Assembly: GCA_048941265.1 (NCBI GenBank)
Contig: JBHLNT010000049.1
Location: forward strand, 1 to 26,144
DNA: 26,144 nt
Origin: Promethearchaeota archaeon
Lineage (GTDB): Archaea; Asgardarchaeota; Lokiarchaeia; Sigyniarchaeales; SOKP01
Direction: 5' to 3'
Both the position numbers and the translations under genes were made by a program. Below, in pieces: positions 6,014-21,472 of this stretch. Each line of letters begins with the position of its first letter. Positions within the stretch are counted from its first letter, which is position 1. The notes beneath the pieces are model-generated. The model saw only the letters and a list, made by a program, of their open reading frames with translations, did no database searches and was not told where the DNA came from.

Positions 6014-7036
6014 TTAAGAGATTTTTGAACACAGATTCTTAAGTATTTTCTCTGCTTCTTTAGTGAAGCCTGTAATTATATCATCCACATCCATTAATGA
6101 ATCAATTAATCCTACTGTTTGACCTACAGGAATCGCTCCATTTTCAACATCTCCTTCGGTATACACAATCATGTATTTATGTAAATCATCTAAAAAACCA
6201 TCTAAATCATAGGCTAATTCTTGTTCTATTTTTTCCTCTTTTGAAACAACCTTACCATGTTCAAGGCAGTATTTATTTTTTAGCAGTCTTATCGGTCCGA
6301 ATCCTCCTGTGGTAAGCATAGTATCTCTAGCAGTAGCGGGAGGAATAAGTGCTTTATAATTAGGGTGAAATTCGCTCTGATTTGAGGCAATAAATCGGGT
6401 TCCCATCGCAACCGCATCTGCGCCCATGGCTAAACCCGCTGCCACACCTTCTGGGCTTGCAAATCCGCCGCATGCTATTAGTGGTTTTTCGGGATACTTT
6501 CGGGCTACTTGTTGGACTAACACAAGAGTACTAATACCTTCATAACTTTGATGACCACCACCTTCAGTCCCCGTAGCAACAATCCCATCGCAGCCCGCTG
6601 CAACTACTTTATCAACCAACCATAGAGCAGGAGCCACATGAAAATGCTGTAAATCAGGAGCTTTTTTTTTCCATATTTTACTCGCTTCTCTAGAACCCCC
6701 CGCACTAGTTACCCCATAAATTAACTGTTCTCGCAATTTTGGATCTTTCTGGCGCCATTTTGCAATATTATTTAACAATATTTTATGATCAGTTTGAACC
6801 CTTGCTGTTCTTATATTAACTCCAAACGGTTTGTCAGTATGTTCTATTACATGTTCAAGCTGCGCCTTCATATCGGTTACCGAATTTTTTCCCATTAACG
6901 TCACATGGCTTAAGGTTCCTAGCCCTCCAGCCTCAGCAACTGCAATTGTTAACTCGGTAGTGTAAAATGGACCCATCGGAGCACTTACAATAGGATATTT
7001 AATCCCAAACGTTTCGGTAATTTTTGTTTTAATCAT
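6014..7036 (-). CDS. Nitronate monooxygenase / FabK enoyl reductase family FMN enzyme
   Basis: FGIKYPIVSAPMG, AGGLG, KPFGVN, GTEGGGH, ACGG, MGTRF and GQTVGLI motifs. Confidence 0.88.
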   Translation of the reverse strand: MIKTKITETFGIKYPIVSAPMGPFYTTELTIAVAEAGGLGTLSHVTLMGKNSVTDMKAQLEHVIEHTDKPFGVNIRTARVQTDHKILLNNIAKWRQKDPKLREQLIYGVTSAGGSREASKIWKKKAPDLQHFHVAPALWLVDKVVAAGCDGIVATGTEGGGHQSYEGISTLVLVQQVARKYPEKPLIACGGFASPEGVAAGLAMGADAVAMGTRFIASNQSEFHPNYKALIPPATARDTMLTTGGFGPIRLLKNKYCLEHGKVVSKEEKIEQELAYDLDGFLDDLHKYMIVYTEGDVENGAIPVGQTVGLIDSLMDVDDIITGFTKEAEKILKNLCSKIS

Positions 7037-7132
7037 GCTAAAATTTCACTTTCAAAACTATAATATTTATAGTTAATACTTATCTTTGACAGTAAAAAAA
7101 CTCTAATATTAATGCATAGATTTACTACTCTA

Positions 7133-7212
7133 CTTCTCTATTTACCTTAGTTTCTTTAGGAATAGCCATATTGGGCATTCTCTAAAGAAAAAATAAGTTA
7201 AAAATAGAAGAA
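7133..7212. other. Long imperfect inverted repeat / hairpin
   Basis: TTTCTTTAG 7151-7159 pairs with CTAAAGAAA 7182-7190. Inner GAAT/ATTC and GCC/GGC close a 6-nt loop. Outer CTTA/TAAG and TCTATTT/AAATAGA. Confidence 0.6.
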
Positions 7213-7231
7213 AAATTAGCGCTAAATCTCT

Positions 7232-7369
7232 TTATGTAACGAATTTTTTCAATTTTTCAGCTAAATTGCCTAATTTGTTAGTATTAGCATAAAATTTCTC
7301 AATTGACGCAGTTTTTTCTTTTATAGAAGTATTAATTCCTTCCTTAAAAGCTGAGGTTATATGAATGTT
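7232..7369 (-). pseudogene. Relic of a methyl-accepting chemotaxis protein C-terminus
   Basis: Startless 45-codon frame NIHITSAFKEGINTSIKEKTASIEKFYANTNKLGNLAEKLKKFVT* aligns without gaps to [45 protein letters not shown] of the MCP at 20487-21335 (19 identities in the first 41 positions, counted by hand). Confidence 0.8.
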
Positions 7370-7382
7370 TTAATAAGTAAAA

Positions 7383-9731
7383 CTATGTTCGGCAAAGTCT
7401 TTTGAGTAGGGTGGGATCAATAATTTCTTTGGGTTGCCAATTTTTTTTCTTTAAATATTCCACAATTTCTGTTTTCATGCTAATTGGTATATCTGCTTCT
7501 ACGCGAATAAATTTTTCCAAATCGTTTGGAAAATCTACACCTTTATATTTTCGTTCTAAATCAATCCAATGGGACAACTTTATCATTCTTCCTTTTGTAT
7601 TGTCTGCGGGTCTCAAACACATTTTAGCAACTAAACAAATAGCTTGCTCAATGGATTCAGCTGTAGTTAAGAGATGTTCTGGACCAGGTCCAACTAAGTG
7701 TCCTGAGGTACCATCTCTAGCATTATATACTTTCCATGTTTCTTCCTCGTCGGACCTACCTATATACATTCTTCGGTATTCAGCACCATGAGGACCGATT
7801 ATAGCCGGTATACCCATGCTATTACAACTACTTGCAATACTCGCAGCTTTTTGACTCATCGCACCCCAAGCCACTCCACATGCGCCAACCCGATTTAATA
7901 TATAATCCGCAATTTCTTCAAAGTTCCCTCTCAAAGGTCTTCTTGCAAATATATTCGCTACTTTACATGCAGCACCATTGATGTGGGGATTCGATACGCA
8001 GGAACCTACGTTTACTAAGCCCCCTCTAGCGAAATCTCCTGGAAATCTGTCATACAGGGTTTTTCCTTCCTCATCTTTTACAAGACCGATATCCATTGCT
8101 CCGCAACCGGAAACCACTACAATATAATTTCTATGGCAAAATTCCTCCGCCATTAAGTATAACTCTTGAATATCTTTACCATAATTTGCACAGCCTATTA
8201 TTGCAACAATTCCAGGAATTTCACCTAATACTATAGGGGCTCCTACATTCCTAATTTCAGTATCTTGAATCGGACCACGACCAACTCTTAAATTAAACTT
8301 TTCATTTCTAATTTTTTCGCGACCGGCATACATAATGAGTGTTAAAGGTGAAACTCCTTTCATGCATTCTGCTTCACATCTTCCGCAGTCTAAACAAGAG
8401 TCGAAAGCATCTGATAACATCGAAAAATCACCATCCTTCACCAAATTTATTCCTTCGACGAGAGGTAAATCATTCGGACAATTACGCTGGCAATTTCCGC
8501 AGCCATTACAATTCATTGCCATGTCTATACAACCTTGCTCGTCAGGAACAGCACTTTTTTGTTTTCTTAAGGGATGAACTTTAATTGCTGTTTCAATAGC
8601 AACCGCACCCGCTTTTATTGGGTTTAAGATCAGAACTCCATTAGCTTTACCACTAACGAGATCGTCGACAATTAAATCTATCGAATCTTCGGTTCTATCT
8701 GGTAAACCATTCATATTCTTTTCATTTGTCGCAATAAATGGTGCGCCCACCAATTGGGCTTGCTCATAACATCTTAAATTAACGCATTGCTCATCAACCA
8801 TTACTACATCCGCTAATCCAGAACGAATAAAATGCATTTGACGTGAAAGAGATCCTACCACCTTCGCTCCATCGAAATATCTTGTCAAATCCAGAGCGGT
8901 ACAACATATTGCACCTACATCCACTTTTTCTTGTAATCCTTTTTCCCTTAAATAATCCACTAATTCAATTCCTGGGGCAACATTATGTCCGACCATCAAG
9001 ATTGTAGCTTTATTTTCTGTATCAAGTGTACCCATGCCTAATTCAACAATTGGAACATCTGCATCTCCCATTGGGAAACCATAAGCCGCAATTTGAGCAG
9101 CATCCGCAATTTCCATCCCCACCGCATCGGCTAATCCTGCTAAAAAACTTTTAGCTTCAAAATCCTTGTAACTTGATTCTTGACCTGTATGCCCGGCTGC
9201 TAATAAATGTGTTATCGTATAATGAACCCATTCCATAGCAGTCTCAAGGTCTTCCAAATTTTCCGGCTTCATTCCTACGATTAATCGGGTACAGGGCATC
9301 TCAACAGCTATATTATTTCCAAAGTTTATTGCAACGTTCCCATATTTTTCTTTAAGCCAGTGTAATAGATGGTCACCATGAGCACTATGACACGATGCAC
9401 CTATACAACAGGCAATTTCAACAATTCTCGCCTGCTGTGTTTCCATATTAATACCACAGGCTCCAGTTCTGCCCTTTGATAAATTACACTTTCCGTAAGT
9501 ACATAAACAGCACATATCACAAATTGGCATATAAAAAGGCTTATATCGTTCCATTAATTTAAAGAACCATGGTCTTAAGGTAGGAATATGAGGCATTGGA
9601 TGCGGTCCCATTTCCTCCCATTCCGTTTCGTCTCCATAACTAACTTTACCCGTAGTGAATTCAAAACCTTTAATTGAACCGAGTGGGCCTTTATAAGAAT
9701 CAATTTTAATTTTAGCACCCTTTTTGCTCAT
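7383..9731 (-). CDS. cdhA: CO dehydrogenase/acetyl-CoA synthase complex alpha subunit (archaeal Ni-CODH)
   Basis: D/B-cluster CDMCCLCTYGKC..ACG. C-cluster ligands in GHN, ICCT, DEQC, IGCAN, SGCG and GSCV. E/F-cluster motifs CNGCGNCQRNCP and CLDCGRCEAEC. HSAHGDH and SQKA catalytic motifs. Confidence 0.95.
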   Translation of the reverse strand: MSKKGAKIKIDSYKGPLGSIKGFEFTTGKVSYGDETEWEEMGPHPMPHIPTLRPWFFKLMERYKPFYMPICDMCCLCTYGKCNLSKGRTGACGINMETQQARIVEIACCIGASCHSAHGDHLLHWLKEKYGNVAINFGNNIAVEMPCTRLIVGMKPENLEDLETAMEWVHYTITHLLAAGHTGQESSYKDFEAKSFLAGLADAVGMEIADAAQIAAYGFPMGDADVPIVELGMGTLDTENKATILMVGHNVAPGIELVDYLREKGLQEKVDVGAICCTALDLTRYFDGAKVVGSLSRQMHFIRSGLADVVMVDEQCVNLRCYEQAQLVGAPFIATNEKNMNGLPDRTEDSIDLIVDDLVSGKANGVLILNPIKAGAVAIETAIKVHPLRKQKSAVPDEQGCIDMAMNCNGCGNCQRNCPNDLPLVEGINLVKDGDFSMLSDAFDSCLDCGRCEAECMKGVSPLTLIMYAGREKIRNEKFNLRVGRGPIQDTEIRNVGAPIVLGEIPGIVAIIGCANYGKDIQELYLMAEEFCHRNYIVVVSGCGAMDIGLVKDEEGKTLYDRFPGDFARGGLVNVGSCVSNPHINGAACKVANIFARRPLRGNFEEIADYILNRVGACGVAWGAMSQKAASIASSCNSMGIPAIIGPHGAEYRRMYIGRSDEEETWKVYNARDGTSGHLVGPGPEHLLTTAESIEQAICLVAKMCLRPADNTKGRMIKLSHWIDLERKYKGVDFPNDLEKFIRVEADIPISMKTEIVEYLKKKNWQPKEIIDPTLLKRLCRT

Positions 9732-9770
9732 TTTTATCTTTCCAAATTTGTTATTATTTTCTAATTAATT

Positions 9771-9786
9771 ATGAATATTTATTCAC
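9771..9786. promoter_or_regulatory. Palindromic operator, copy 1 (ATGAATATTTATTCAC)
   Basis: Matches the ATGAATAATyATTCAy consensus found five times in the window; 40 bp upstream of the cdhA start. Confidence 0.7.
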
Positions 9787-9828
9787 TATTTAGACATATA
9801 ATATATATTTCTATAACTTAAAAACCTA

Positions 9829-9844
9829 GTGAATAATCATTCAT
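9829..9844. promoter_or_regulatory. Palindromic operator, copy 2 (GTGAATAATCATTCAT)
   Basis: Near-perfect palindrome; on the minus strand it is followed by TAGGTTTTTAAG (TATA-like) facing cdhA. Confidence 0.8.
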
Positions 9845-9888
9845 TCTAAAATCATCTAAAACAAATAAATAAAAAGGTTTTATTGATT

Positions 9889-9904
9889 ATGAATAATCAT
9901 TCAC
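9889..9904. promoter_or_regulatory. Palindromic operator, copy 3 (ATGAATAATCATTCAC)
   Basis: Followed directly by AAATCTTAAATA (TATA-like) facing the DUF5320 gene. Confidence 0.8.
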
Positions 9905-9986
9905 AAATCTTAAATATGTAGATTACTTTTATTATATTGGATAATATAAAATTAAAAAAATAAAAAAAGGAGATGATGTATAAAAT

Positions 9987-10376
9987 ATGCCAAGAGGAGA
10001 TAGAACCGGACCTGCAGGATTTGGTCCAATGACAGGTAGAGGATTAGGCTATTGTGCAGGATATGATACACCTGGATACACAAAAGGACCAGGCATGGGA
10101 ATGGGACGCGGATGGGGACGAGGCATAGGATATGGGAGAGGTCCTGGGTGGCGAAGAGGTTGGGGCAGAGGATTTGGCGGATACTGGGGCTATGGGGCTC
10201 CATCGTACGTTCCACCTATAATCGCTTCTCCGGCTTATGTGTCTCCCACTACCCCTGAAACTCAATTAACAATGCTTAAACAAGAAAAGGATTATTTAGA
10301 ATCAGAAATGGAAGGGATAAAAGGAGCATTAGCAGATATATCTAAAAGAATTGACGAATTAGAAAAAACTGAATAA
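9987..10376 (+). CDS. DUF5320 family protein (Gly/Arg-rich, C-terminal coiled coil)
   Basis: Characteristic MPRGDRTGPxGxGPMTGRGLGYC N-terminus, GRG repeats and LKQEKDYLESEM...ISKRIDEL coil; GGAG upstream. Confidence 0.88.
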   Translation: MPRGDRTGPAGFGPMTGRGLGYCAGYDTPGYTKGPGMGMGRGWGRGIGYGRGPGWRRGWGRGFGGYWGYGAPSYVPPIIASPAYVSPTTPETQLTMLKQEKDYLESEMEGIKGALADISKRIDELEKTE

Positions 10377-10417
10377 TTTTTTTTAAATTTACATCGGATA
10401 TGAGGGTGTGAAATAAA

Positions 10418-10810
10418 ATGAGTAATTTAAATGAAAGTTCCGAAGATTATTTAAAAGCAATTTATTTTATTTCAAAAAAGAAAAAGGGTGGATGGTGTTC
10501 TAACCGAGAAATCTCAAAGTATTTAGATGTCAAACCTTCATCTGTTACCGGTATGTTGCATAAATTAAAAGAAAATGGATTAATTATTTGGAGTCCTCGA
10601 AAATCATTAAGATTAACTGAGAAAGGTAAAAATGTTGCTCAGGAAACAATAGATTGTTATAACATCTTAAAAAATTTCTTTTCAACCGTCTTAAAAATTG
10701 AAGACCATTCATTAATTGAGGAATTGAGTTGCGGAATCGAACATCATATCACCCCGGAAATATTAGAGTCTCTGCAGGGAGTAATTTTTGGTAATTCAAG
10801 TGCGGAATAA
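10418..10810 (+). CDS. DtxR/MntR family metal-dependent transcriptional regulator (no FeoA domain)
   Basis: EDYLKAIY, VKPSSVTGMLHKL helix-turn-helix, LTEKG and CGIEH. Confidence 0.9.
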   Translation: MSNLNESSEDYLKAIYFISKKKKGGWCSNREISKYLDVKPSSVTGMLHKLKENGLIIWSPRKSLRLTEKGKNVAQETIDCYNILKNFFSTVLKIEDHSLIEELSCGIEHHITPEILESLQGVIFGNSSAE

Positions 10811-10813
10811 TGA

Positions 10814-11749
10814 TTAATCAGCTACTAACCTCCAAAAAACATTATTGTTATACTTAATTTTTTCAATTTTTTTACGATCTTCAAGAACTTTTAACCGTTG
10901 AAAAATTTCTTCTTTATTTAGATTCTGATTACAAAAAGTCTCAATAATTTGATCCTGCCTCATGGGATGCCTTTCGATAATAGATAGAAATTCATTTTCG
11001 AAATTCGTTGAATAAAAGTTAAATTTCCCCATTTCGGGATAATGAATATCAGAATAATCGCCAAATATCTCATTTAATAAGAAAATAATACTATTTTCAG
11101 GCATTTTAACCCATTTTTCTGCGGGTGGTCTGATTGGTACGTTTATATCAATCCTGTCTGGCATTAGTAGATCAATTTTTTCTTTTAAATTTAACAATTC
11201 ATTCTTAGAATCGTTGATTCCTTTCATTATCATAATTTCAAGCCAAAATTTTCCGTCAAACATATTCCTAAATTCTATTAGTCCTTGGATCATCTTATTA
11301 TATTTAATAGAAGGATGGGGTCTGTTGATTTTGATAAATGCCCTTTCATTTCCCGCATCTAAACTAGGTAAGATTAAATCAGCAGGCATGAGAGCATTGC
11401 GAACTTCTGGATCATATAATAATGCTCCATTTGTAATAACGCACACTATCTTTTTAGTTAGCGTTTTAGTAAATAATATCAAGTCTTCAATATCTTTATA
11501 TAGCGTGGGTTCCCCGCTTCCTACAAAAGTTATATAATCTAATTCATTTTTGTATTGATTAATAGCTTCTCTGATTTCACAGATTATATCTTCTTTTGGA
11601 AAAAAATTTCTCCGAGTGTTCGTAAAATAAGTGGTTTTTCCCAATTGACAATATATACATTGATAATTACAAGTTTTTGAGGGAAGAAGATCAATCCCTA
11701 AGGATCTTCCCAATCTTCTGCTCGGTACAGGACCATAAAGATATTTCAT
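10814..11749 (-). CDS. Radical SAM protein (COG0731 / Tyw1-like, function unknown)
   Basis: YGPVPSRRLGRSLGIDL N-terminus, CNYQCIYC cluster motif, GSGEPTL, TNG and SLDA. Confidence 0.85.
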   Translation of the reverse strand: MKYLYGPVPSRRLGRSLGIDLLPSKTCNYQCIYCQLGKTTYFTNTRRNFFPKEDIICEIREAINQYKNELDYITFVGSGEPTLYKDIEDLILFTKTLTKKIVCVITNGALLYDPEVRNALMPADLILPSLDAGNERAFIKINRPHPSIKYNKMIQGLIEFRNMFDGKFWLEIMIMKGINDSKNELLNLKEKIDLLMPDRIDINVPIRPPAEKWVKMPENSIIFLLNEIFGDYSDIHYPEMGKFNFYSTNFENEFLSIIERHPMRQDQIIETFCNQNLNKEEIFQRLKVLEDRKKIEKIKYNNNVFWRLVAD

Positions 11750-11770
11750 GCTAATTTTTAAATCTATAAA

Positions 11771-13027
11771 TTAATCAAAACTTTTATTTCTCAAATTAAT
11801 TTTTTCATAATCGATTATTTCATTGATATTATCTAACTCAGTAAGAGAGACCTCAATCAAATTATTATTAAAAATTAAGGAGGGTCCTTTCTTGAGACTA
11901 TTTTTTAAAATTAACTTGTCAATCTTATGAAATATCAACCATTCAGAGATTAATATTCCTTTTCTTTTTTCTTCCTGAGCATATTGATTTGGGAGTACCT
12001 CTAATTTTGAGAATTTTCCCTTATCAAATTCTATAAATCCGAAAAATGGGCTTTCTCCAAAATGTTCTGAAATTGTAGAGTTTAAATCTTGATTGTTATT
12101 TAGTGGAATTGCAATTTTAATTATATCTTTTTCCTGACTTTTAATAATAATTATTATTTTAAATATAGATGGAAAATTGTTCATTATTTTATGACTTAAT
12201 TTATTTTTGAATAAATTTATTTGGGAAAGCGGGAATTCTTTGCTTAAGCTGATTTCTAATTCCAAAAATATATATCTCCCATAAGATCTAATTCCCATGT
12301 TATCAATTTTTTTAATTTCTGGAGTGTTCTCAATTAAAGTAATGAGCTCGGTTCTGTTTTCAAAATCAATTACCGCATCGAGCAATGTTTTCGTGGAGGA
12401 AAGAAAAATATCATACCCCCCTTTAATAATAAAAATAGCAATAAATAATCCGATTATCGAATCCAAGATATAGAAATTAAATAGTGCTCCTATGAATCCG
12501 ATAAAAACAGAGAGGGAAATAAATATATCAAATAACTTTTCATTTGCTTCAGATTTAATTATTGGTGATTTAGTTTTCTTTTCAATTAATTTCAGATACA
12601 ACATTATGACTATAGTACTTAATAATGAAATGATTAGAAATATCAAAACTAAAGGGGTGGGGTATATCATTTTAGGATTTCCCCTAAAATAATTCATTAG
12701 AGCTACGATTGATTGGGTGATAATCGTGTATGCGGTAAAAAAAATTAACAGGGAAAATAATAAACTGATAATATTTTCCATTTTGTAATAACCATAAGGG
12801 AATCTTTCATTTGGTTTTTTATTAGTAAAGAGGATGCCTATAAGAGCAGTAATATTCATGATAATATCAGTCAAATTGTCAAAGGCATCCGCTTGAAGGG
12901 CTATACTGTTTGTTAGAATTCCGAAAATTAATTTCAAAATAAAAAAAACAGTATTAACTAATAATAGTACAATATTGATAAAAAACGGGCGCTCATAAAA
13001 ATTTAAATGATCCCTTATTTCATTCAT
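11771..13027 (-). CDS. Cation diffusion facilitator transporter with C-terminal NifB/NifX-like domain
   Basis: KLIFGILTNSIALQADAFD, FPYGYYKME and LLD after about six hydrophobic helices; ZT-dimer domain (RSYGRY); C-terminal IAIP...ISEHFGESPFF. Confidence 0.88.
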   Translation of the reverse strand: MNEIRDHLNFYERPFFINIVLLLVNTVFFILKLIFGILTNSIALQADAFDNLTDIIMNITALIGILFTNKKPNERFPYGYYKMENIISLLFSLLIFFTAYTIITQSIVALMNYFRGNPKMIYPTPLVLIFLIISLLSTIVIMLYLKLIEKKTKSPIIKSEANEKLFDIFISLSVFIGFIGALFNFYILDSIIGLFIAIFIIKGGYDIFLSSTKTLLDAVIDFENRTELITLIENTPEIKKIDNMGIRSYGRYIFLELEISLSKEFPLSQINLFKNKLSHKIMNNFPSIFKIIIIIKSQEKDIIKIAIPLNNNQDLNSTISEHFGESPFFGFIEFDKGKFSKLEVLPNQYAQEEKRKGILISEWLIFHKIDKLILKNSLKKGPSLIFNNNLIEVSLTELDNINEIIDYEKINLRNKSFD

Positions 13028-13030
13028 TTA

Positions 13031-13474
13031 TTATCCATTCTCATTATATCTGTATTTCTCAATCGATCTTTTTAAGGTTCTTACTGCTAATTCAGCGCAA
13101 TGTTTATGATCTTCAGGTAACCCTTTTAATGCTTTATCAATATCTTCTGGAGTTAAGCTTTCGGCAAATTCTAAAGATTTTTTCTCAATCATTAGCGTTG
13201 TTTGACTACCTGCCGCAACAGTCGCACCGCAACCATCTGTAATAAAATTTGCTTTTTCGATGATATTATCTTTAATTTTTAAAAAGAACTTCATAGTATC
13301 CCCACAAGAACCCTCGTAAGCATGCCATACAGTTATTTCATCTTCGGATGGTTTACCCCAATTTATCGGATTATGAAATAAGTTGACAACGTATTCATTA
13401 TAGTGTTCTAATTCTTTATCAATAATTTCTTTTTGAAGCTTTTTTACAAATTCATCAAAATCCTCTTCAGACAT
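13031..13474 (-). CDS. iscU: IscU/NifU-type Fe-S cluster scaffold protein
   Basis: Three conserved Cys in GSCGD, DGCG and KHCA; FHNPINWG. Confidence 0.85.
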   Translation of the reverse strand: MSEEDFDEFVKKLQKEIIDKELEHYNEYVVNLFHNPINWGKPSEDEITVWHAYEGSCGDTMKFFLKIKDNIIEKANFITDGCGATVAAGSQTTLMIEKKSLEFAESLTPEDIDKALKGLPEDHKHCAELAVRTLKRSIEKYRYNENG

Positions 13475-13542
13475 GCGATATTAAATTCTCTGTTACTTTT
13501 TTATATTTCAATTACTCAATTATGGATAATAAAAACAATTAA

Positions 13543-14394
13543 TTATTTCTCCACTATTTCTTGAATCTGTTTTACAACCTGCTTAAATGCTTTCGCACTT
13601 TCGCTATTTGGATTTTTTATAACAAAGGGTAAACCTCTATCCCCTTGGATTCCAAGTTCTACTTCAAAAGGAATCTTACCTAATAATAGTACACCAAAAT
13701 CCTTCGCAGCCTTTTCAGCACCTCCGGGTGGATAAAGATCGATATATTCCCCACAATGAGGGCATTTAAATCCAGACATGTTTTCAATTATTCCAATCAC
13801 CTTTCTCTCCATAACCATCGACATTTTGATAGTTTTACGAGCATCCATAAGAGCTACTTCTTGAGGTGTCGTAACAACAATCACATTCTCGTCTGGAATT
13901 AGTTGTAAAATATCTAACGTTTCATCAGAAGTACCCGGTGGTAAATCACAGATAAGATAATCTAATTCTTCCCATTCAGCATCTCCTAAAAACTGCCTGA
14001 CAGCACCCATTTTCATTGGACCTCTCCAAATAACTGGCTCGTCTGGATTCAACGTTAAAAACGCCATGCTCATTACTTTCATGTTTAATGGCCCTATAAC
14101 GGGGTAGAATTTTTTGGCTTCAGGGTCCACACTAGGTTTTAGTTCTGGACTTACTCCTAACATTTTTACTACATTCGGTCCCGTAATATCAACATCCAAA
14201 ATTCCAACTCTGCAACCTATGCTGGCTAAACTTATAGCGAGGTTAACAGCGACGGTCGTTTTACCTACCCCTCCTTTGCCGGAAATAATCACAATTTTAT
14301 GCTTAATTTTTTCCATATTTTTTTTAATATTTTCCATTCGCTCATCTAACATTGCTTTTTTTACAGATTCTTCCGTAATTTCTTCATTTCCCAT
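13543..14394 (-). CDS. mrp: Mrp/NBP35/ApbC family Fe-S carrier ATPase
   Basis: SGKGGVGKT, DVDITGP, IWRGP, DLPPGTSD, VTTPQ and ENMSGFKCPHC. Confidence 0.93.
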   Translation of the reverse strand: MGNEEITEESVKKAMLDERMENIKKNMEKIKHKIVIISGKGGVGKTTVAVNLAISLASIGCRVGILDVDITGPNVVKMLGVSPELKPSVDPEAKKFYPVIGPLNMKVMSMAFLTLNPDEPVIWRGPMKMGAVRQFLGDAEWEELDYLICDLPPGTSDETLDILQLIPDENVIVVTTPQEVALMDARKTIKMSMVMERKVIGIIENMSGFKCPHCGEYIDLYPPGGAEKAAKDFGVLLLGKIPFEVELGIQGDRGLPFVIKNPNSESAKAFKQVVKQIQEIVEK

Positions 14395-14462
14395 TACAAT
14401 TCAACCTATTTCAATCTCTTTTAATTCTATTTAAAAAAAGTTAACCATAATTTTAAAATTTA

Positions 14463-14478
14463 ATGAATAATCATTCAA
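14463..14478. promoter_or_regulatory. Palindromic operator, copy 4 (ATGAATAATCATTCAA), in the mrp/osmC divergent region
   Basis: Consensus match flanked by TATA-like TTTATAAA (plus strand, 14479) and TTTTAAAA (minus strand). Confidence 0.8.
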
Positions 14479-14557
14479 TTTATAAATCAAAATTAATTTT
14501 ATTTATATACAACATTAAATTTTAAAAAGTTGTTAAAAACAAAAAAAGTGAAAAACT

Positions 14558-15067
14558 ATGCCAAGTTTTAAAGAAACGTATGAAGCTATTAAAGCAGATT
14601 GGGCAAATGGGGAGAAGAATTTCAATATTGAATGTGAAATGCTTTCTGATGGTATGCAAGTCATGTGTACTATGGGAAATCCTGGAGGAGAGCCCTTTAA
14701 ACTGCTAATTGATGCCCCTGGAGGATTAGACGGTACAAATAAAGGACCTTCTCCTTTATTGGTGATCTTATCCTCAATTGGAGCTTGTATCATAGCAGTT
14801 ACTAAATTTTGGGCTAAGATAATGGATATCAAAATTGAAGAATTAAAAGTATTCTCACGCGGTCATATAAATTTAGGAGCTATTTTCGGGATTGACGACT
14901 CCAAAATTGCTGGATATGATAACTTAGAGCCAGTTATCCGAATTAAAGCAGATGCTTCTGAAGAAAAAATTAATGAATTAATGGATAAAGTTTTTAATCA
15001 TTGTCCTGTCATTACGAACTTCGGAGGGGCATCTAAAATTACACCTAAGGTACAAATTAGAACTTAA
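14558..15067 (+). CDS. OsmC/Ohr family protein
   Basis: IDAPGGLDGTNKGPSP...IGAC and HCPV two-cysteine signature. Confidence 0.85.
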   Translation: MPSFKETYEAIKADWANGEKNFNIECEMLSDGMQVMCTMGNPGGEPFKLLIDAPGGLDGTNKGPSPLLVILSSIGACIIAVTKFWAKIMDIKIEELKVFSRGHINLGAIFGIDDSKIAGYDNLEPVIRIKADASEEKINELMDKVFNHCPVITNFGGASKITPKVQIRT

Positions 15068-15177
15068 TTAATTCTAATCTTTTTTTTTTTTATAATTAAA
15101 AAGTTAACATCTTTTTTTTTCTATCAACTTTTCTTCATAAGTGAAGAAATTTTAAGCGAGAACTTTTTTATTTCATT

Positions 15178-15219
15178 TTGAATAATTAATTATTAAAATT
15201 TTATTGAATAGTTATTATT
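15178..15219. promoter_or_regulatory. Two degenerate operator-like sites upstream of the DUF134 gene
   Basis: TTGAATAATTAATTAT (15178-15193) and TTGAATAGTTATTATT (15204-15219) have 3-4 mismatches to the consensus; weak in AT-rich DNA. Confidence 0.35.
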
Positions 15220-15277
15220 AATTATATATTGATTCATTAAAAGATAAATCCTAGAAAAAAAGATACATCTGATAAAT

Positions 15278-15697
15278 ATGGGAAGAAGGACACGAAGAAA
15301 ATGGGTACTTAAAACACCGGACAACTTATATTTTTCCAATATAGAGCCGCAAATGGCAAACTGTGTATTTTTAACTGTTGCTGAATTTGAGGCTATGCGA
15401 CTTAAACATTATACAAAACTAACTCAAGAAAGAGCAGCTGATAGTATGGGTATTAGTCAACCCACATTTTCACGTATCCTTGATGTTGCTCATCAAAAAA
15501 TTACTCAAGCATTAATTGAAGGAAAAGTAATTAAAGTCTCGGGTGGCAATTTTGATGTTAAACCAAATTTTATTGGCTATGGGTGCTTGAATTGTGATCA
15601 TGAATGGGAAGATCGGAATGCCTCAAGAGATAGAAAAGTAAAGTGTGTTAAATGCAATTCCGAAAATGTTTATTATTTTGAAAGAGAAATTATCTAA
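15278..15697 (+). CDS. DUF134 (UPF0251) HTH DNA-binding protein with C-terminal zinc ribbon
   Basis: LTVAEFEAMRL, QERAADSMGISQPTFSRIL, ALIEGK, GG; then CLNC...CVKC. Confidence 0.9.
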   Translation: MGRRTRRKWVLKTPDNLYFSNIEPQMANCVFLTVAEFEAMRLKHYTKLTQERAADSMGISQPTFSRILDVAHQKITQALIEGKVIKVSGGNFDVKPNFIGYGCLNCDHEWEDRNASRDRKVKCVKCNSENVYYFEREII

Positions 15698-15707
15698 AAT
15701 AATGTTT

Positions 15708-16646
15708 TTAGTGGATTGAATTATTCCATAAGATGGCCTTCAGATTTTTATAAATTTCTTTAATTGCTAAGCTTGCCTTTGAATCTGGAGCGTATTCTAT
15801 TACTGTTTTTGCAAATGACATTGCTTTTGGAATTGCTAAATCATATGGAATTCTTCCAAGAACATTATAACCAGTCTCATCAATAAATTTCTTAAATTGG
15901 TCTTGAAAGGGACTTTTCAAGTCAAATTTATTAATCACAATTCCAAAGGGAATTTTAAATTGCTGAACGACTTCAATTGCTCTGTTTAGGTCATGTAAAC
16001 CCGAAGGGGTAGGTTCAGTTATCGCAATTACATAATCTAACCCTGAAATAGTTGCTATTACAGGACAGCCGATACCAGGAGGTCCATCAATTAAAATTAA
16101 ATTACTTTCTTCAAACTTCTCAATTCCAGATGTATATTCTTTTACATCTGAAACTAGCTTTCCTGATGTTGTACTCCCAATTCTGGTCTTACCATAGACG
16201 AGTGGGATACCGAGTTGTGATTGATAATAAATAATTTGTCCACTTTTTACAGTATTTATCTGAAAAGCATGTTCTGGACATAATACTTTACAAGCTCCAC
16301 AGCCTTCACATGATAAATAATCAACTTCTGGGATTTCATTTATATCATTCCATTTTAAAGCATGGAATTCACAAAAATGCTCGTCAATACATTTTTTGCA
16401 ATTAACACATTTTTCTTCTAAAAATTCAGCTTTTAAGGTTGTAAATGTATCAACAGTTTTTATTTCATCATTCGATTTAGCAGGGAGAATTAAGGCTAAA
16501 TTTGGAGCATCTACATCGCAATCTAATACAATTGATTTAATTTGAACATCGTCCTTAGTTAAATTTGCTAATGATGCCGTAAGCGAGGTTTTACCTACTC
16601 CCCCCTTACCCGAAATAATTCCAACACTTTTTTTTTGATCGTCCAT
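15708..16646 (-). CDS. MinD/CobQ-superfamily P-loop ATPase with inserted ferredoxin domain (COG1149)
   Basis: SGKGGVGKT, DCDVDAPNL, CVNCKKC...C, CEGCGACKVLCP, DGPPGIGCP and TEPTPSGLHDL. Start placed at 16646 (GGAGA RBS, 2 nt after the upstream stop) rather than 16673. Confidence 0.9.
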   Translation of the reverse strand: MDDQKKSVGIISGKGGVGKTSLTASLANLTKDDVQIKSIVLDCDVDAPNLALILPAKSNDEIKTVDTFTTLKAEFLEEKCVNCKKCIDEHFCEFHALKWNDINEIPEVDYLSCEGCGACKVLCPEHAFQINTVKSGQIIYYQSQLGIPLVYGKTRIGSTTSGKLVSDVKEYTSGIEKFEESNLILIDGPPGIGCPVIATISGLDYVIAITEPTPSGLHDLNRAIEVVQQFKIPFGIVINKFDLKSPFQDQFKKFIDETGYNVLGRIPYDLAIPKAMSFAKTVIEYAPDSKASLAIKEIYKNLKAILWNNSIH

Positions 16647-16648
16647 AT

Positions 16649-17569
16649 TTAGTCTCCTTTTGAATCTAACCAAAATGCTAAATTTTCAAAAATTTTTTGA
16701 AATGCGTTATATCCTGCTCCACCCTTAAATTCACTATTTTCATTCATCAATGGTTTCCCTTGACAATAAGAATTAACAATATCATCATCTAAAGGGATAT
16801 CACCTAAGACTTGGATATTCATATCTTTTAATTCTTTTATAAACTGATCTTTATACCCCAATAATGATGATCTATTAATGATAACCTGAAAATCCTTGTT
16901 TAATAAACTAATTAGCTCAATAATTCTCAATAGATCTAACTTACCAAATTTGGTGGGTTCCGTAACCGGTATTACCTTATCTGCCTTATCAATTAATAAT
17001 TCAACATCGCAATGCGCACCAGGAGCAGTATCTAAAATAATTATATCGAACTTTGTAGGATCATTTTCTATAATGTTAGAAAGTTTTTTCATAAGTACTT
17101 CCACTACAGACGCAGAACGAGCTTCAGATGGTTTTAATTCTCCAATTAAGAGGGAAATTCCATCTGCGAATGTAGAATAAGTCCAACCGACTGTTTTGTA
17201 ATCTTCCTCAATTGCGTCTTCTGGACATATTTTATAACATAATCTACAACCTGAACACACTGCTAATATTGGAATCGGATATGCATCTTTAATATGTAAT
17301 AGCGCATGAGGAGTACAATTTTCTGCACATAAGCCACACTTTGTACATTCTTCTTCATTAATTTTCGGTTTAAAAAAAGGAACTTCTTCTCTATTTTCCA
17401 ATGAACCGCCTAATAATAAAAAAGTGTTAGGATTTTCAACATCTCCATCAATTAATAAAACTTTTTTACCCTCATTTTTAAACATCGTAGCGATATTAAC
17501 AGCTACTAAAGTTTTACCGGTTCCTCCTTTACCTCCCGTAATACAGATGATTTTAGGTCTATTCACCAT
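16649..17569 (-). CDS. MinD/CobQ-superfamily P-loop ATPase with inserted ferredoxin domain (COG1149), partner paralogue
   Basis: GGKGGTGKT, DGDVENPN, CTKCGLCAENC, CSGCRLCYKICP, DTAPGAHC and TEPTKFG. Confidence 0.9.
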   Translation of the reverse strand: MVNRPKIICITGGKGGTGKTLVAVNIATMFKNEGKKVLLIDGDVENPNTFLLLGGSLENREEVPFFKPKINEEECTKCGLCAENCTPHALLHIKDAYPIPILAVCSGCRLCYKICPEDAIEEDYKTVGWTYSTFADGISLLIGELKPSEARSASVVEVLMKKLSNIIENDPTKFDIIILDTAPGAHCDVELLIDKADKVIPVTEPTKFGKLDLLRIIELISLLNKDFQVIINRSSLLGYKDQFIKELKDMNIQVLGDIPLDDDIVNSYCQGKPLMNENSEFKGGAGYNAFQKIFENLAFWLDSKGD

Positions 17570-17618
17570 ATTTTTTGCAACACTATGTTTAGATTTCGTT
17601 GATTTTGCGTCAAATTAA

Positions 17619-18092
17619 TTAGAACTGAGGTCCTCGACCTCTTCCTTGCCCTCCTCCCATACCACGTCCTCCGCCCATTCCTCGGCCGCCTCCCATACCT
17701 CGCCCACCTCCCATTCCCCAATGGGAAACAACATTAGCTTCGCTCATCAGAGATAATTTGTCTTCAATATATAATTCGATGGCTTCTTTTACAGTGAGTT
17801 GCCTATTAGGGGCTTGATAGATTTTAAAATTAGAAGCCGCCAGTGATTGAGCCGCATTTGGACCAAGATTTCCTACAATCACTTCCTTAGCACCATAGTT
17901 TCCTATAGTTTGAACAGCTTGAATCCCTGCTCCCCCCATAGCATTTGCAGCCATATTACTTACAGCTCTTACCTCCTTAATAGATTTATCCTCGATTGTG
18001 ACAAAAGTAAACGTATCACAGCGTCCAAACCGAGGATTCATGAGAGAATTCAATCCTCCATCTCCAAATGAAGGAACAGCTATTATTACCAT
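17619..18092 (-). CDS. NifB/NifX (MTH1175 / Orange protein) family protein with Gly-Arg tail
   Basis: IAVP, RFGRC, GGAGIQAVQ and GNLGPNA motifs. Confidence 0.88.
   Translation of the reverse strand: MVIIAVPSFGDGGLNSLMNPRFGRCDTFTFVTIEDKSIKEVRAVSNMAANAMGGAGIQAVQTIGNYGAKEVIVGNLGPNAAQSLAASNFKIYQAPNRQLTVKEAIELYIEDKLSLMSEANVVSHWGMGGGRGMGGGRGMGGGRGMGGGQGRGRGPQF
17649..17720 (-). repeat. Four tandem GMGGG(R/Q) peptide repeats (18-bp period, synonymously diverged)
   Basis: Translation GMGGGRGMGGGRGMGGGRGMGGGQ; the codons differ between units. Confidence 0.8.
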
Positions 18093-18134
18093 TTTATTCT
18101 AACCTCCTTTTTACAATATACTATTTTAAATTTT

Positions 18135-18518
18135 TTAAGAATATTCATGCTGATGAGGGGAATTTTCTCCACAACTCGCTCCAGCTAATGGTATTAATCT
18201 ACCACCTAATAGATATTCAACATTATCCTTTAAAGTTCCATATATCCCTTGATGGAGATTTATCCCAACCTGCAAAAATCCCTTATAGGGTCGGCCTCCA
18301 ATACCTCCAATAATCATATCTGTAACTCTTCTATTTTTCATATTCATGACAGGCTCCATACAACCAGCATGCCCCTCATTGCGCAAAGAAAATAATTTTT
18401 TATAATTATTGTTCTCGTCTATTTCTATTCCAACAAAATAATTCGCATGTCCAAAATGTTCAGAAATATTATCTGATAGTTCCGGACCATCTGAAGGAAT
18501 CCCTATGACTTTATTCAT
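18135..18518 (-). CDS. NifB/NifX family protein
   Basis: IGIPS, ISEHFGHANYF, HAGCMEP and GGIGGRP; C-terminal SCGENSPHQH. Confidence 0.85.
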   Translation of the reverse strand: MNKVIGIPSDGPELSDNISEHFGHANYFVGIEIDENNNYKKLFSLRNEGHAGCMEPVMNMKNRRVTDMIIGGIGGRPYKGFLQVGINLHQGIYGTLKDNVEYLLGGRLIPLAGASCGENSPHQHEYS

Positions 18519-18575
18519 TTTTTAAATACCATTTTTATTTTATATTAATATAGTGAATTTTCAAATTTAAAATTT

Positions 18576-18591
18576 ATGAATAATTATTCAT
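18576..18591. promoter_or_regulatory. Palindromic operator, copy 5 (perfect ATGAATAATTATTCAT), between divergent NifX genes
   Basis: Perfect 16-bp palindrome; on the minus strand it is followed by AAATTTTAAAT (TATA-like). Confidence 0.85.
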
Positions 18592-18654
18592 TAAATTAAA
18601 ATATTATAAATCATATTTATCACTTAGAACTTAATAAAAAAAATGATGTTTTAA

Positions 18655-19059
18655 ATGATTGTTGCAATAAGTACAGATTCAAGGGAAGTCTGTCCTCATT
18701 TTGGAAGGGCACCAGAATTTACATTTGTAGAGTTTGAGGATAATAATGTGGTGGATAAAAAGGTTCTTCCTAATCCGGGACATACCGTGGGGAGTATACC
18801 TAAATTCATCAGTGAACAAGGAGCATCCTGCATTATTACAGGAGGAATGGGACATCGCGCTATAGGGTTTTTTCAGCAATACGGTATAGACGTAATTATG
18901 GGCATAACTGGAACGATTGATGAAGTTATTAAGAAAATCATTGATGGGACATTGGAAGGAGGAGAAAGTCTATGTGCTCCCGGACAAGGTAAAGGATTTG
19001 GAGTTGAAAAGATTCATACTGACGCTGATGATGATCATGACCATCATCATCACTTTTAG
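18655..19059 (+). CDS. NifB/NifX family protein with His/Asp-rich tail
   Basis: CPHFGRAPEF, NPGH, GGMG and GGESLC; tail HTDADDDHDHHHHF. Confidence 0.88.
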   Translation: MIVAISTDSREVCPHFGRAPEFTFVEFEDNNVVDKKVLPNPGHTVGSIPKFISEQGASCIITGGMGHRAIGFFQQYGIDVIMGITGTIDEVIKKIIDGTLEGGESLCAPGQGKGFGVEKIHTDADDDHDHHHHF

Positions 19060-19135: not shown

Positions 19136-20035
19136 TTATTTTCCCTTTTTTATGTACGTGATGATTTGATCGAAGTCACTCAAGCTAAAGGGTTTTAATA
19201 TGTATCCTGTTGCTCCTAGATCTTCTGCCATTTTTTTTACTTTATACTCGGGTATTGCGGTAATGAAGTATACTGGAATTTTGTTATACTCTTTATCTGA
19301 ATTAAGGTCTCTCATTATATCATCCCCACTCATACCTGGTAATAAAATATCAAGAAGTATCAATTTTGGGATATTTATCCTCAACTCACTAAATACACTA
19401 GAGCCCTCAACTATTCCTTTACATGAAATTCCTTTAGTATGAAAATAATTGATCAGAACCTTGCGCGTTTCATAATCATCCTCTACAAAGAAAATATCAT
19501 ATTGTGTACTTTCTGTTTCAATAAATTTAGGTTGTTCGATTTTGGGGCTATCTAAATAATCAATGATCTTATTTTCAAGGTTTTGGTAATACTCCAAAAT
19601 AGTATCAATAATCTGAATAATATTATCATCAAATTTATCGCTATGAACCTCTTTTAAAATCTGTAAGTTAACTTTAATCAAAGTTAACGGTTCTTTTAAT
19701 TCAAAAGAAAGAGCTGAAAGGATATCAAAATCCTCTTTCTGTTCAATTTTAAGTTTTGGATAAAGTTTAATAAAACAATCCAGAGCTTCTCTAACTAAGG
19801 CCGAGATTGTCTTAAATTTAGTGTTTTTGGCAAATTTTTCCCATTGTTCTTTAACTCCTTCAGGAATATATAAAGATACTCTCTCTTGGTTTGTGTAATA
19901 CAATTTTTCACCTTTCTGCCACTTTTTAAAACTCTCAGTCAATTTACCGCGCCAATACGCATCTTTCCCTGTTTCTTCTTTATATTTTTTTCTAATTTCT
20001 TCTGATATCTTTGTCTTATCTGAAATACTTCTCAC
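19136..20035 (-). CDS. Response regulator: N-terminal small domain, ribbon-helix-helix, degenerate HisKA and receiver
   Basis: Receiver motifs VEDD, LLDILLPGMSG, ITA and KPF. RVSLYI..WEKFA..TISALVREAL is RHH-like. SFELKEPLT is a pseudo H-box. GTG start. Confidence 0.8.
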   Translation of the reverse strand: MRSISDKTKISEEIRKKYKEETGKDAYWRGKLTESFKKWQKGEKLYYTNQERVSLYIPEGVKEQWEKFAKNTKFKTISALVREALDCFIKLYPKLKIEQKEDFDILSALSFELKEPLTLIKVNLQILKEVHSDKFDDNIIQIIDTILEYYQNLENKIIDYLDSPKIEQPKFIETESTQYDIFFVEDDYETRKVLINYFHTKGISCKGIVEGSSVFSELRINIPKLILLDILLPGMSGDDIMRDLNSDKEYNKIPVYFITAIPEYKVKKMAEDLGATGYILKPFSLSDFDQIITYIKKGK

Positions 20036-20116
20036 CCATAATAAATATAAATTTTTTTATACAAAATAATTCAATATTACATATATTTAAGTTTTTTTAT
20101 GTTTAATTATACCTTT

Positions 20117-20197
20117 AAAAAATGGGGGTTTGAATCCCCCCAAAGGTGAAAGAAAGGTGATAAGATGATTTTTCATCTGTGTAAAATCATGATATTA
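20117..20197 (-). ncRNA. Candidate small RNA (hairpin, two TCACCTTT motifs, GC hairpin and U-tract)
   Basis: The minus strand reads TTTATATA box (20229-20222), ATGATTTT/AAAATCAT stem, ATCACCTTTCTTTCACCTTT, GGGGG-ATTCAAA-CCCCC, ATTTTTT. Ends are estimated. Confidence 0.45.
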
Positions 20198-20486
20198 TGT
20201 GCACAATTATGGCTTTATGCATATATAAAGATAATTTTTATATTTAAATGTTTACATTTTTTTCCTTCGAATTTACATTTTCTTAAATTTTATAACAATA
20301 ACACAGATTATTTGTAAAAAAAATATATTTAAATACAAATTATATTATTACTGATTTATGTGTGATTTATCAACTTTATGCACATATTAAACAAAAAAAT
20401 AATTATAAAATTTTTATAAATCAACATTTAAGAAAAAAGAAGTTGATTATAAGTGCCAGAATTTGAAATAATTAAAACTAAAAAAA

Positions 20487-21335: not shown

Positions 21336-21358
21336 TTTATTGACTTCTATAGGTTTTT

Positions 21359-21472
21359 TTTCTAAATTTTATTTTTAAATTTTAGTAATTAAAGCGAACT
21401 AACTGGACATGTTTTCTGTCATATATTAAGTTAGTGTCTTTGATGTAAACTAAATTTAAAATAATATAGAAA
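21359..21472 (+). other. Long imperfect hairpin / MITE-like element
   Basis: Nested pairs TTTCTA/TAGAAA, TTATTTT/AAAATAA, AATTT..AGT/ACT.AAATT, ATTAAAG/CTTTGAT, ACTAACT/AGTTAGT and GACA/TGTC. Confidence 0.55.

Follow-up and report, generated by a model that had tools for sequence, protein, structure and literature searches.

A palindromic operator shared by a lone cdhA gene and iron-sulfur and metal-trafficking genes suggests a metal-responsive regulon in a minority of Asgard lineages

In Desulfovibrio vulgaris Hildenborough, the Orange protein (ORP) locus comprises orp5-orp4-orp3 and orp7-orp8-orp9, according to the available portions of two descriptions (PMC6345978, PMC8359166). There, MrpORP hands Fe-S (iron-sulfur) to an Orp3-Orp4-Orp8 complex, the function of which is still open in the accessible text (PMC6345978), and the orp operons are reported to respond to redox potential through an Fe-S regulator (accessible text of PMC8359166). 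The NifX-domain protein IssA of Pyrococcus furiosus carries a cationic Gly-rich tail that binds thioferrate, as stated in the available part of its description (PMC5524996). We analyzed a stretch of 26,144 nucleotides from a Promethearchaeota archaeon (contig JBHLNT010000049.1, hereafter the window), in which cdhA, the gene for the catalytic subunit of archaeal CO dehydrogenase/acetyl-CoA synthase (CODH/ACS), faces a set of genes reminiscent of both systems and shares with them the palindrome TGAATNNNNATTCA. We propose, with a probability of roughly 0.55, that a metal-responsive transcriptional regulon ties cdhA to an Fe-S and metal trafficking and storage set in a minority of Asgard lineages. 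The literature that we searched held no paper linking Asgard cdhA with NifX, ORP, IssA or DtxR genes.

Open reading frames (ORFs) were called in six frames, and the 23 of at least 60 aa were scanned with Pfam and NCBIfam. Both collections bore out the gene map of the original prediction, with an intact cdhA head-to-head with 13 metal and Fe-S genes at 9987-19059. In agreement with that map too, none of the 23 window ORFs matched CdhB, CdhC, CdhD or CdhE or resembled a CooC in the Pfam scan. The genes are as follows.

7383-9731, minus strand: cdhA, 782 aa; TIGR00314 and Pfam Prismane
9987-10376, plus strand: DUF5320 gene, first of the regulator operon; PF17253, E 7.6e-26
10418-10810, plus strand: DtxR/MntR-family regulator, 130 aa; PF01325, E 6.7e-16, and PF02742, E 7.6e-9
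10814-11749, minus strand: radical SAM protein of a subfamily without assignment; PF04055, all NCBIfam matches below cut-offs
11771-13027, minus strand: CDF-NifX fusion; PF01545, E 1.7e-43, and PF02579, 28.3 bits against a cut-off of 26.3
13031-13474, minus strand: IscU/NifU-N-like Fe-S scaffold; PF01592, E 2.1e-26
13543-14394, minus strand: Mrp/NBP35 (ApbC-type) Fe-S carrier ATPase without NifX domain; PF10609, E 5.3e-91
14558-15067, plus strand: OsmC-like protein; PF02566, conserved Cys residues
15278-15697, plus strand: DUF134 protein; PF02001, E 3.5e-20
15708-16673, minus strand: MinD-type ATPase with inserted 2x[4Fe-4S] ferredoxin domain, second of the pair; CbiA/ParA and Fer4 families
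16649-17569, minus strand: MinD-type ATPase with inserted ferredoxin domain, first of the pair; CbiA/ParA and Fer4 families
17619-18092, minus strand: NifX1, with Gly/Arg-rich cationic tail; PF02579, E 1.7e-17, residues 15-109
18135-18518, minus strand: NifX2, first gene of the NifX2-NifX1-ATPase operon; PF02579, E 1.2e-9
18655-19059, plus strand: NifX3, with His-rich tail; PF02579, E 3.8e-22

Spacing suggests seven transcription units: cdhA; DUF5320-dtxR; Mrp-IscU-CDFNifX-rSAM (rSAM, radical SAM); OsmC; DUF134; NifX2-NifX1-ATPase-ATPase; and NifX3. The two ATPase genes overlap by 25 bp. The radical SAM gene, last in the Mrp operon, is syntenic in seven related loci, and the CDF-NifX fusion matches the CDF model TIGR01297, MamM, MamB and FieF being the nearest named NCBIfam models.

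The set resembles the Desulfovibrio ORP locus, as far as the available descriptions of the latter go, in its paralogous pair of MinD-type ATPases with two [4Fe-4S] ferredoxin motifs (the Orp3/Orp4 type), its single-domain NifX/Di-Nase proteins (the Orp8 type, for which three PF02579 proteins are candidates here), its Mrp/NBP35 carrier, its DUF134 protein, its divergent operons under one regulator (predicted here) and its anaerobe-specific character. In contrast, MrpORP is a fusion of Mrp/NBP35 with a Di-Nase domain, whereas here Mrp and NifX3 are split: Mrp matches positions 1-250 of the 365 of the MrpORP model (322 bits, short of the 450 required), and NifX3, a separate gene on the opposite strand, matches positions 265-365 (E 4.7e-24). 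The present set further adds IscU, CDF-NifX, radical SAM, OsmC and DUF5320 proteins and an IssA-like protein, and its predicted regulon includes cdhA. Control differs as well, with sigma-54, OrpR and IHF in Desulfovibrio and the 14-bp palindrome and a probable DtxR-family repressor here. A sigma-54/OrpR-type regulator was not detected by Pfam in the window; to our knowledge, archaea lack sigma-54. The ORP system is further characterized by a physical complex of its ATPases with the NifX protein and by a Mo-Cu-S cluster on Orp8.

Operator sites in the window and across Asgard cdhA loci

Five exact copies of TGAATNNNNATTCA lie in the window, at 9772, 9830, 9890, 14464 and 18577. The mean expected by chance is 0.12, and five copies were reached in none of 100 dinucleotide-preserving shuffles. 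All are intergenic and fall within the three divergent promoter regions of the locus, three between cdhA and DUF5320, one between Mrp and OsmC and one between NifX2 and NifX3. The original prediction had a common palindrome upstream of cdhA and of most units, and exact copies indeed precede six of the seven. DUF134 is the exception, with a weak copy at a stringency (two mismatches) at which 5.5 window matches are expected by chance. The extended consensus, of about 20 bp, is TTATGAATAATTATTCATAA. The sites and the putative cdhA promoter element are listed below; operator sites are given without strand.

9772..9785: operator site proximal to cdhA; exact match, 40 bp to the cdhA ATG
9815..9826, minus strand: TATA/BRE-like box (BRE, TFB recognition element) of the putative cdhA promoter; it reads GGTTTTTAAG in the minus-strand direction and lies a short way downstream of the distal site
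9830..9843: middle operator site, distal for both the cdhA and DUF5320 promoters; exact match, 58 and 60 bp from the neighboring sites
9890..9903: operator site proximal to DUF5320-dtxR; exact match, 83 bp to the DUF5320 ATG
14464..14477: operator site 69 bp from Mrp and 80 bp from OsmC, which flank it; exact match
15179..15192: degenerate operator-like site upstream of DUF134; two mismatches, 85 bp before DUF134
18577..18590: operator site 58 bp from NifX2 and 64 bp from NifX3, which flank it; exact, a perfect 14-bp palindrome

Related loci were collected by a scan of genome contigs with CdhA, which found 114 relatives; the best 80 of these were used, in 79 loci (L-numbers below) totaling 1.31 Mb; the named lineages are all Asgard, and the others are recorded as 'uncultured archaeon'. 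The exact palindrome occurs 42 times in these loci, and all copies fall within 10 of them. Every copy lies upstream of cdhA, DUF5320-dtxR, NifX1/Mrp, NifX2, NifX3/DUF134, OsmC, CDF-NifX or one of two uncharacterized ORFs, and none of the 42 copies in the 79 loci stands beside a gene of known unrelated function. The 69 loci without a gene of the set, or with the usual GTPase neighbors alone, hold no exact copy. Two copies in L079 precede the homologous cdhA start at 10001, the frame of the called ORF running past that start. A position weight matrix built from 47 sites returned just 14 further, non-exact matches above 12 bits in the 1.31 Mb. Six of these sit 40-76 bp before cdhA (L003, L031, L033, L040, L041 and L068), which argues that the proximal site persists in weakened form in more lineages.

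Sites recur at the other units of the set. The NifX1/Mrp intergenic regions of L010, L016, L045 and L079 have a site each, and exact sites precede the DUF5320-dtxR operon in the window and in all seven related loci that hold it, suggesting autoregulation of the DtxR-like protein. In five of the seven related loci holding DUF5320, the sites are 66-77 and 126-138 bp from its start; the exceptions are L052 (34 and 85 bp) and L016 (17 and 79 bp). The regulon part of the original prediction, a metal- or redox-responsive one, is thus supported by an operator conserved in position and sequence in 10 of the 79 loci and at the dtxR operon in seven of seven.

The sites upstream of cdhA follow a common plan, in the order distal site, TATA-like box, about 30-90 bp (mostly about 30-35), second site, about 35-40 bp, ATG. 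In seven genomes (the window, L010, L035, L036, L049, L052 and L079) the distance from the proximal site to the start of cdhA is 46-54 bp (-46 to -54). A second site or a one-mismatch copy is found about 58-119 bp further up, usually about 61 bp, with a T-rich TATA-like box between the two; the usual spacing of sites is 58-62 bp. This box, a putative TATA element, lies 4-7 bp past the distal site, or past its copy with one mismatch, in ten loci, namely the window and nine related ones; it reads CTTTTAT in six loci and GGTTTTTAAG in the window. L016, L045 and L073 show the identical order with a longer leader. The other divergent promoters have a single site between two TATA-like boxes.

In the window and L035, three sites are common to both divergent promoters, the middle one being shared. 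As these three lie in one 255-bp divergent region and are not assignable by position alone, the sites between cdhA and DUF5320 might serve DUF5320-dtxR and the Fe-S set only, with cdhA adjacent by accident and unregulated; that most cdhA orthologues have no site is in line with this idea. However, cdhA retains its two-site promoter under other upstream neighbors, namely a same-strand Glu-synthase-like gene in L052 (with dtxR 3.3 kb downstream), NifX2 in L079, a locus with the entire cluster inverted, and CDF in L036. The constant spacing of the proximal site in seven genomes, the TATA-like box between the sites, which points towards cdhA, and the near-matches at the equivalent position in six more loci also speak against accidental adjacency, which we consider highly improbable. 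Because the two-site plan is kept under such differing neighbors, cdhA appears to be a direct target in these lineages, and we regard it, on the arrangement of its predicted promoter, as a member of the regulon in its own right.

Operator sites also occur near genes of another kind. In L052 (16708-18842), one lies 62 bp before an uncharacterized 248-aa ORF that is followed by an HdrB equivalog gene (362.6 bits against a cut-off of 345.15), and HdrD-like CCG proteins adjoin dtxR in L052 and CDF in L036. The regulon may reach heterodisulfide-reductase-like genes.

cdhA and its neighbors in Asgard genomes

The window CdhA scores 1058.7 bits against the cdhA equivalog TIGR00314 (cut-off 781.3) over residues 15-769 and aligns end to end with the alpha subunits of acetyl-CoA decarbonylase/synthase (ACDS), its closest solved relative being 8riu_A (E 2.3e-267). 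It contains the 2x[4Fe-4S] ferredoxin insert typical of archaeal alpha subunits (Fer4_7/Fer4_9 at residues 407-460). All 39 Asgard sequences compared share residues H249, C277, C316, C514, C543 and C578, which align with 8riu_A; we take them to be the ligand positions, one His and five Cys, of the Ni-Fe-S C-cluster of CODH structures. On these matches, the window gene is assigned as that of the Ni-Fe-S catalytic (alpha) subunit of archaeal CODH/ACS. In the available part of one source, CODH/ACS is described as present and transcribed in Atabeyarchaeia and Freyarchaeia.

The CdhA relatives are 81-93% identical over their full length across Asgard classes. A Pfam scan of 188 distinct flank ORFs from the 79 loci (26 + 12 + 150, not counting 79 single-member clusters at distances above 4.7 kb from cdhA) found no Cdh subunit family. 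A lone cdhA is therefore the normal Asgard arrangement, seen in all 79 loci, and gives no sign of a special monofunctional enzyme. One CooC candidate, a 258-aa CbiA/AAA_31 protein (L052:20612-21388), matched no named NCBIfam model above its cut-off and is not callable as CooC. The third cdhA of Methanosarcina acetivorans, a lone clade A CODH, similarly has no ACS genes alongside; the Asgard case differs in that the lone state extends to all 79 loci and to a protein conserved at 81-93%. In the available text of a clade A survey, 93% of CODH operons hold a one-carbon gene and 62% CooC, and Asgard, NifX and DtxR go unmentioned in that text (PMC13056359).

The window proteins were mapped onto the 79 loci with tblastn, and the 1110 ORFs of the flanks were clustered. 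A complete Fe-S gene set stands beside cdhA in L010, L016, L035, L045, L049 (where the contig end cuts the set) and L079, in which the entire set is inverted relative to cdhA and still adjacent. Partial sets are found in L052 (DUF5320-dtxR and the radical SAM gene, downstream) and L036 (CDF alone). Of the 59 loci whose upstream sequence spans 3 kb or more, 8 hold any gene of the set, as do 7 of the 42 with at least 9 kb. The synteny of cdhA with the set recurs across Asgard in six full and two partial cases, and at 8 of 59 loci overall it is a minority state.

On a maximum-likelihood CdhA tree of 80 sequences, the operator-bearing genes are scattered: at least 6-7 state changes are needed, and none of 500 label shuffles gave a value as low. 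Such a tree rules out a single paralogue clade of operator-bearing cdhA and indicates that the operator link was gained or kept repeatedly. Two metagenome-assembled genomes (MAGs) have two cdhA loci each, with the operator at one copy (L052, L036) and none at the other (L054, L042), and L073 has a tandem cdhA pair (6893-9280 and 10001-12352).

The original prediction offered another reading besides a regulon, in which the 13 genes might form a dedicated, CooC-independent maturation or repair system for a lone, monofunctional CdhA. IscU and Mrp would provide Fe-S, the His-tailed NifX3 and CDF-NifX would handle Ni or another metal, and the ATPase pair would carry out insertion. The predicted direct membership of cdhA in the regulon fits this scheme, as do the adjacency that recurs in six full and two partial loci, in at least two arrangements and several CdhA lineages, the window's lack of a CooC-like gene, the conserved His-rich tail of NifX3 and the MAGs in which one cdhA copy has the operator and the other does not (L052 versus L054, L036 versus L042). 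However, a gene of the set accompanies cdhA in so few loci (the 8 of 59), and the lone state of cdhA, found in all 79, does not single out the window copy; with its identity of 81-93% and its full equivalog score, the protein looks like an ordinary ACDS alpha subunit. ORP-type loci also occur in organisms and contexts unrelated to CdhA, in the available portions of the ORP papers (PMC6345978, PMC8359166). NifX3 and DUF5320, moreover, are widespread in Asgard: NifX3 orthologues fall in 309 protein clusters (E at most 1e-10) and DUF5320 in 2395 (E at most 1e-3), the named clusters among the best 120 listed of each being all Asgard or subsurface metagenome records. In Loki_b32, the NifX3 and DUF5320 orthologues are located on contigs of 191,400 and 31,813 bases and cdhA on one of 244,494. 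The module is thus not tied to cdhA, and the evidence leans against its dedication to CdhA. Dedicated maturation finds no support here, and we regard it as improbable.

The commonest cdhA neighborhood (41-56 loci per family) contains Arf-like and Gtr1/RagA-like small GTPases, a VWA protein and an MtrH-like methyltransferase, found in 47, 56, 47 and 44 loci, respectively (for example, L065:5231-6250, L069:2422-3630, L078:2274-3473 and L050:16665-17549). A fixed neighborhood of a carbon-fixation gene with eukaryote-like small GTPases was unexpected. In 42 loci, a 198-aa protein without Pfam match is encoded just before cdhA, on the same strand and about 360 bp upstream (L071:7733-8329 and 46 cluster mates). 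Its NCBIfam match to MsvR, a redox regulator, is weak and falls in the C-terminal half of the latter (E 1.1e-6; 28.5 bits, cut-off 220). Where cdhA lacks the palindrome, this protein may act as its usual regulator or partner.

Genes for metal transport and homeostasis recur around cdhA. CDF, MntP, DUF364, Fur and ZIP genes are found beside operator-bearing copies, and the ferrous iron uptake genes feoA and feoB are located downstream of cdhA in 6-7 loci, some of them lacking the Fe-S gene set (L025:12795-15313, L045:13941-16569, L004:19887-22040 and cluster mates). In L016 (4496-6052), a single 518-aa ORF covers parts of both MinD-ferredoxin ATPases, with two CbiA stretches. The pair may be naturally fused there, or the ORF may be a deletion or an artifact of assembly.

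The remainder of the window contains three signaling genes past NifX3 (19136-25455), none with a palindrome upstream: a response regulator whose N-terminal part, of 180 aa, is unassigned, a 282-aa protein with an MCP-signaling domain, and a histidine kinase of 1258 aa that has five or more PAS domains. At 1516-3630 is the gene for a 704-aa N6-adenine DNA methylase with Eco57I/MmeI-like methylase domains (Pfam), also present in L035 at 73% identity. Rfam at gathering thresholds gave no match within the window, and sigma-70 and terminator scans, which are not applicable to an archaeon, gave counts at or below the shuffle level.

Iron-sulfur module and candidate regulator

NifX1 combines, like IssA, a NifX domain (IPR003731) with a disordered, cationic, Gly-rich tail. 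Its 40-aa tail contains 19 Gly, 5 Arg/Lys and 2 aromatic residues, with a pI of 12.0; the five operon orthologues have a Gly/Arg tail as well, and a second copy in L045, 43% identical, lacks one. With 2 aromatic residues in 40, this tail is aromatic-poor and fits the partly available description of the uncharacterized 'IssX' better than that of IssA proper. NifX1 is thus predicted to resemble Fe-S storage proteins of the IssA/IssX type. The IssA tail itself has, in the accessible text, 15 Gly, 7 cationic and 14 aromatic residues, 11 Pro and 1 Cys in 70 residues, with a pI of 10.7 (PMC5524996). The make-up of the basic half of DUF5320 is nearly the same, a lead by composition: this protein begins with a basic part rich in Gly, Arg, aromatic residues and Pro (residues 1-90: 27 Gly, 10 Arg/Lys, 14 Trp/Tyr/Phe, 12 Pro and 1 invariant Cys; pI 10.3) and ends in an acidic coiled coil. 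No NifX-DUF5320 fusion was found among the best 120 of the 2395 DUF5320 matches (70-226 aa, PF17253 alone; longer proteins were not searched). The DUF5320 gene immediately precedes the dtxR-like gene, both in the window and in all seven related loci.

His-tailed NifX proteins were part of the maturation scheme, and this feature holds for NifX3 and not for its paralogues. The acidic, His-rich and conserved tail of NifX3 has 6 His in its last 27 residues, H121 and D125 being invariant and H132 present in at least 90% of 37 sequences, whereas NifX2 has 2 His in its last 18 residues and NifX1 has the Gly/Arg tail. MinD-class ATPases and a His-rich tail are also reminiscent of nickel insertion by CooC, CooJ and CooT, by resemblance alone; unlike that system, the ATPases here carry ferredoxin inserts, the His tail is borne by a NifX domain, and a CooC-type protein is absent from the window. 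A complex prediction for CdhA and NifX3 (alignments A2 and A1) gave a score of 0.00 and a mark of 0.32, without controls, and counts neither way on binding.

The probable operator-binding repressor of the regulon, judged by its domains and gene position, is the 130-aa DtxR-like protein. It has the helix-turn-helix and metal-binding/dimerization domains of the DtxR family, lacks the SH3-like domain, and scores 75.3 bits against the MntR equivalog (cut-off 138). Aligned to Bacillus MntR (1on1_A), its residues D10, K13, Y81, S104, E108 and H109 fall at what we take to be the binuclear Mn site (D8, E11, H77, E99, E102 and H103). This site is not reproduced: Lys, Tyr and Ser replace E11, H77 and E99, and D10, E108 and H109 are kept. 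The protein has an extra Cys105 relative to MntR, and D/N10, C105, E108 and H109 are conserved in eight of eight orthologues. C105, E108 and H109 resemble the Cys-Glu-His primary site of DtxR/IdeR (C102, E105 and H106), the direct alignment to DtxR being weak (E 3e-4). This likeness would favor Fe(II) or another softer metal over Mn.

Archaeal metalloregulators of the DtxR family include MDR1 of Archaeoglobus fulgidus and TroR and SirR of Haloferax volcanii. The latter two have the identical two Pfam domains and a palindromic operator near the promoter. According to the available text, they regulate metal transport and storage genes, and TroR also regulates another family member (PMC10783522). 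The targets differ here, being Fe-S assembly and storage genes and cdhA rather than uptake systems; the regulator gene is always paired with a DUF5320 gene, and the operator has another sequence.

Proposed mechanism and implications

In the mechanism that we propose, a dimeric protein from the locus itself, the likeliest candidate being the DtxR-family regulator, would bind TGAATNNNNATTCA in response to a metal or other signal. At cdhA and at the regulator operon, two sites about 61 bp apart would bracket the core promoter, one abutting the BRE/TATA box and the other lying around the expected transcription start. Occupancy of the operator would block assembly of the initiation complex and thus repress transcription; that the sites bracket both BRE/TATA and the expected start suggests exclusion of initiation factors and polymerase. 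The ORP/IssA-like module would supply, store or repair Fe-S and metal cofactors in general. As CdhA requires several Fe-S clusters and a Ni-Fe-S C-cluster, it would be co-regulated as a major consumer, so that supply and demand would follow one metal signal.

The regulon might instead be one of redox or oxidative stress, with redox state or the integrity of Fe-S clusters as the cue, sensed by the four Cys of DUF134 or by Cys105 of the DtxR-like protein, and with the set repairing oxygen-damaged Fe-S proteins, the oxygen-sensitive CdhA among them. DUF134 has a predicted DNA-binding region and a C-terminal CxxC...CxxC ribbon, whose four Cys are kept in six of six orthologues, and the OsmC-like protein is very conserved, including its Cys (about 81-93% identity over five loci). 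Peroxiredoxin and thioredoxin genes lie near the operator-bearing cdhA in L036 and L052, the HdrB-like gene follows an operator in L052, and the Desulfovibrio orp operons are redox-responsive through an Fe-S regulator, in the accessible text (PMC8359166). Yet the DUF134 promoter site is degenerate in the window, whereas the dtxR operon has exact sites in all seven related loci, and metal transport genes (CDF, feoAB, ZIP and MntP) dominate the surroundings. We therefore hold a redox signal to be unlikely and favor a metal-responsive regulon.

Several points weigh against that regulon as we describe it. An exact copy lies within 300 bp upstream of cdhA in 10 of the 71 loci that have this much upstream sequence and in none of the other 61, so that the operator is not common to Asgard archaea at large. 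DUF134, or a protein from outside the locus, could be the regulator: in L036, which has the operator and a nearby Fur gene, no dtxR lies within 18 kb. The palindrome is unlike the published TroR and SirR motifs, given as TTTAGGC-NNN-CCTAAA and TTTwGAnnnnTCwAAA in the available text (PMC10783522). TATA assignments are uncertain in intergenic DNA of 30% G+C. A site just upstream of BRE/TATA is also the position of archaeal activators, so that activation may occur instead of repression. The loci are MAG contigs, and paired cdhA copies may be isoforms under different control or binning artifacts. Finally, a metal-loaded repressor acting on Fe-S assembly genes and an Fe-rich enzyme is not intuitive; Fur control of suf in Escherichia coli is a precedent for metal-loaded repression of Fe-S assembly.

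Because cdhA appears to be a direct target and to have been kept repeatedly in the regulon, there is room for a closer relationship, in which CdhA would be a physiological client of an ORP/IssA-type machine. The ATPase pair, the NifX carriers, one of them His-tailed and another with a tail of the thioferrate type, and CDF-NifX would then build or repair its Ni-Fe-S and Fe-S clusters without CooC, by a physical hand-over, and DUF5320 would report the state of the Fe-S store to the DtxR-like repressor. We rate this extension of the regulon model as doubtful; if true, the ORP system would gain a named client and a testable signal path.

What is new here is the combination: a probable DtxR-type metalloregulon and an ORP/IssA-type set, both of a known kind, come together and include cdhA. 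Of the original prediction, the regulon part is supported and the dedicated maturation part is not. An easy misreading is also corrected, in that a lone Asgard cdhA should not be taken as the sign of a special monofunctional enzyme. In the archaea nearest to eukaryotes, CODH/ACS occupies a central place in carbon and energy metabolism, and the operator, a 14-bp site at fixed promoter positions in at least 11 genomes, provides a sequence-level handle on its control. Two questions thereby become testable, namely what ORP-type systems are for, and how Fe-S supply is matched to the demand of the largest Fe-S enzymes in anaerobic archaea.

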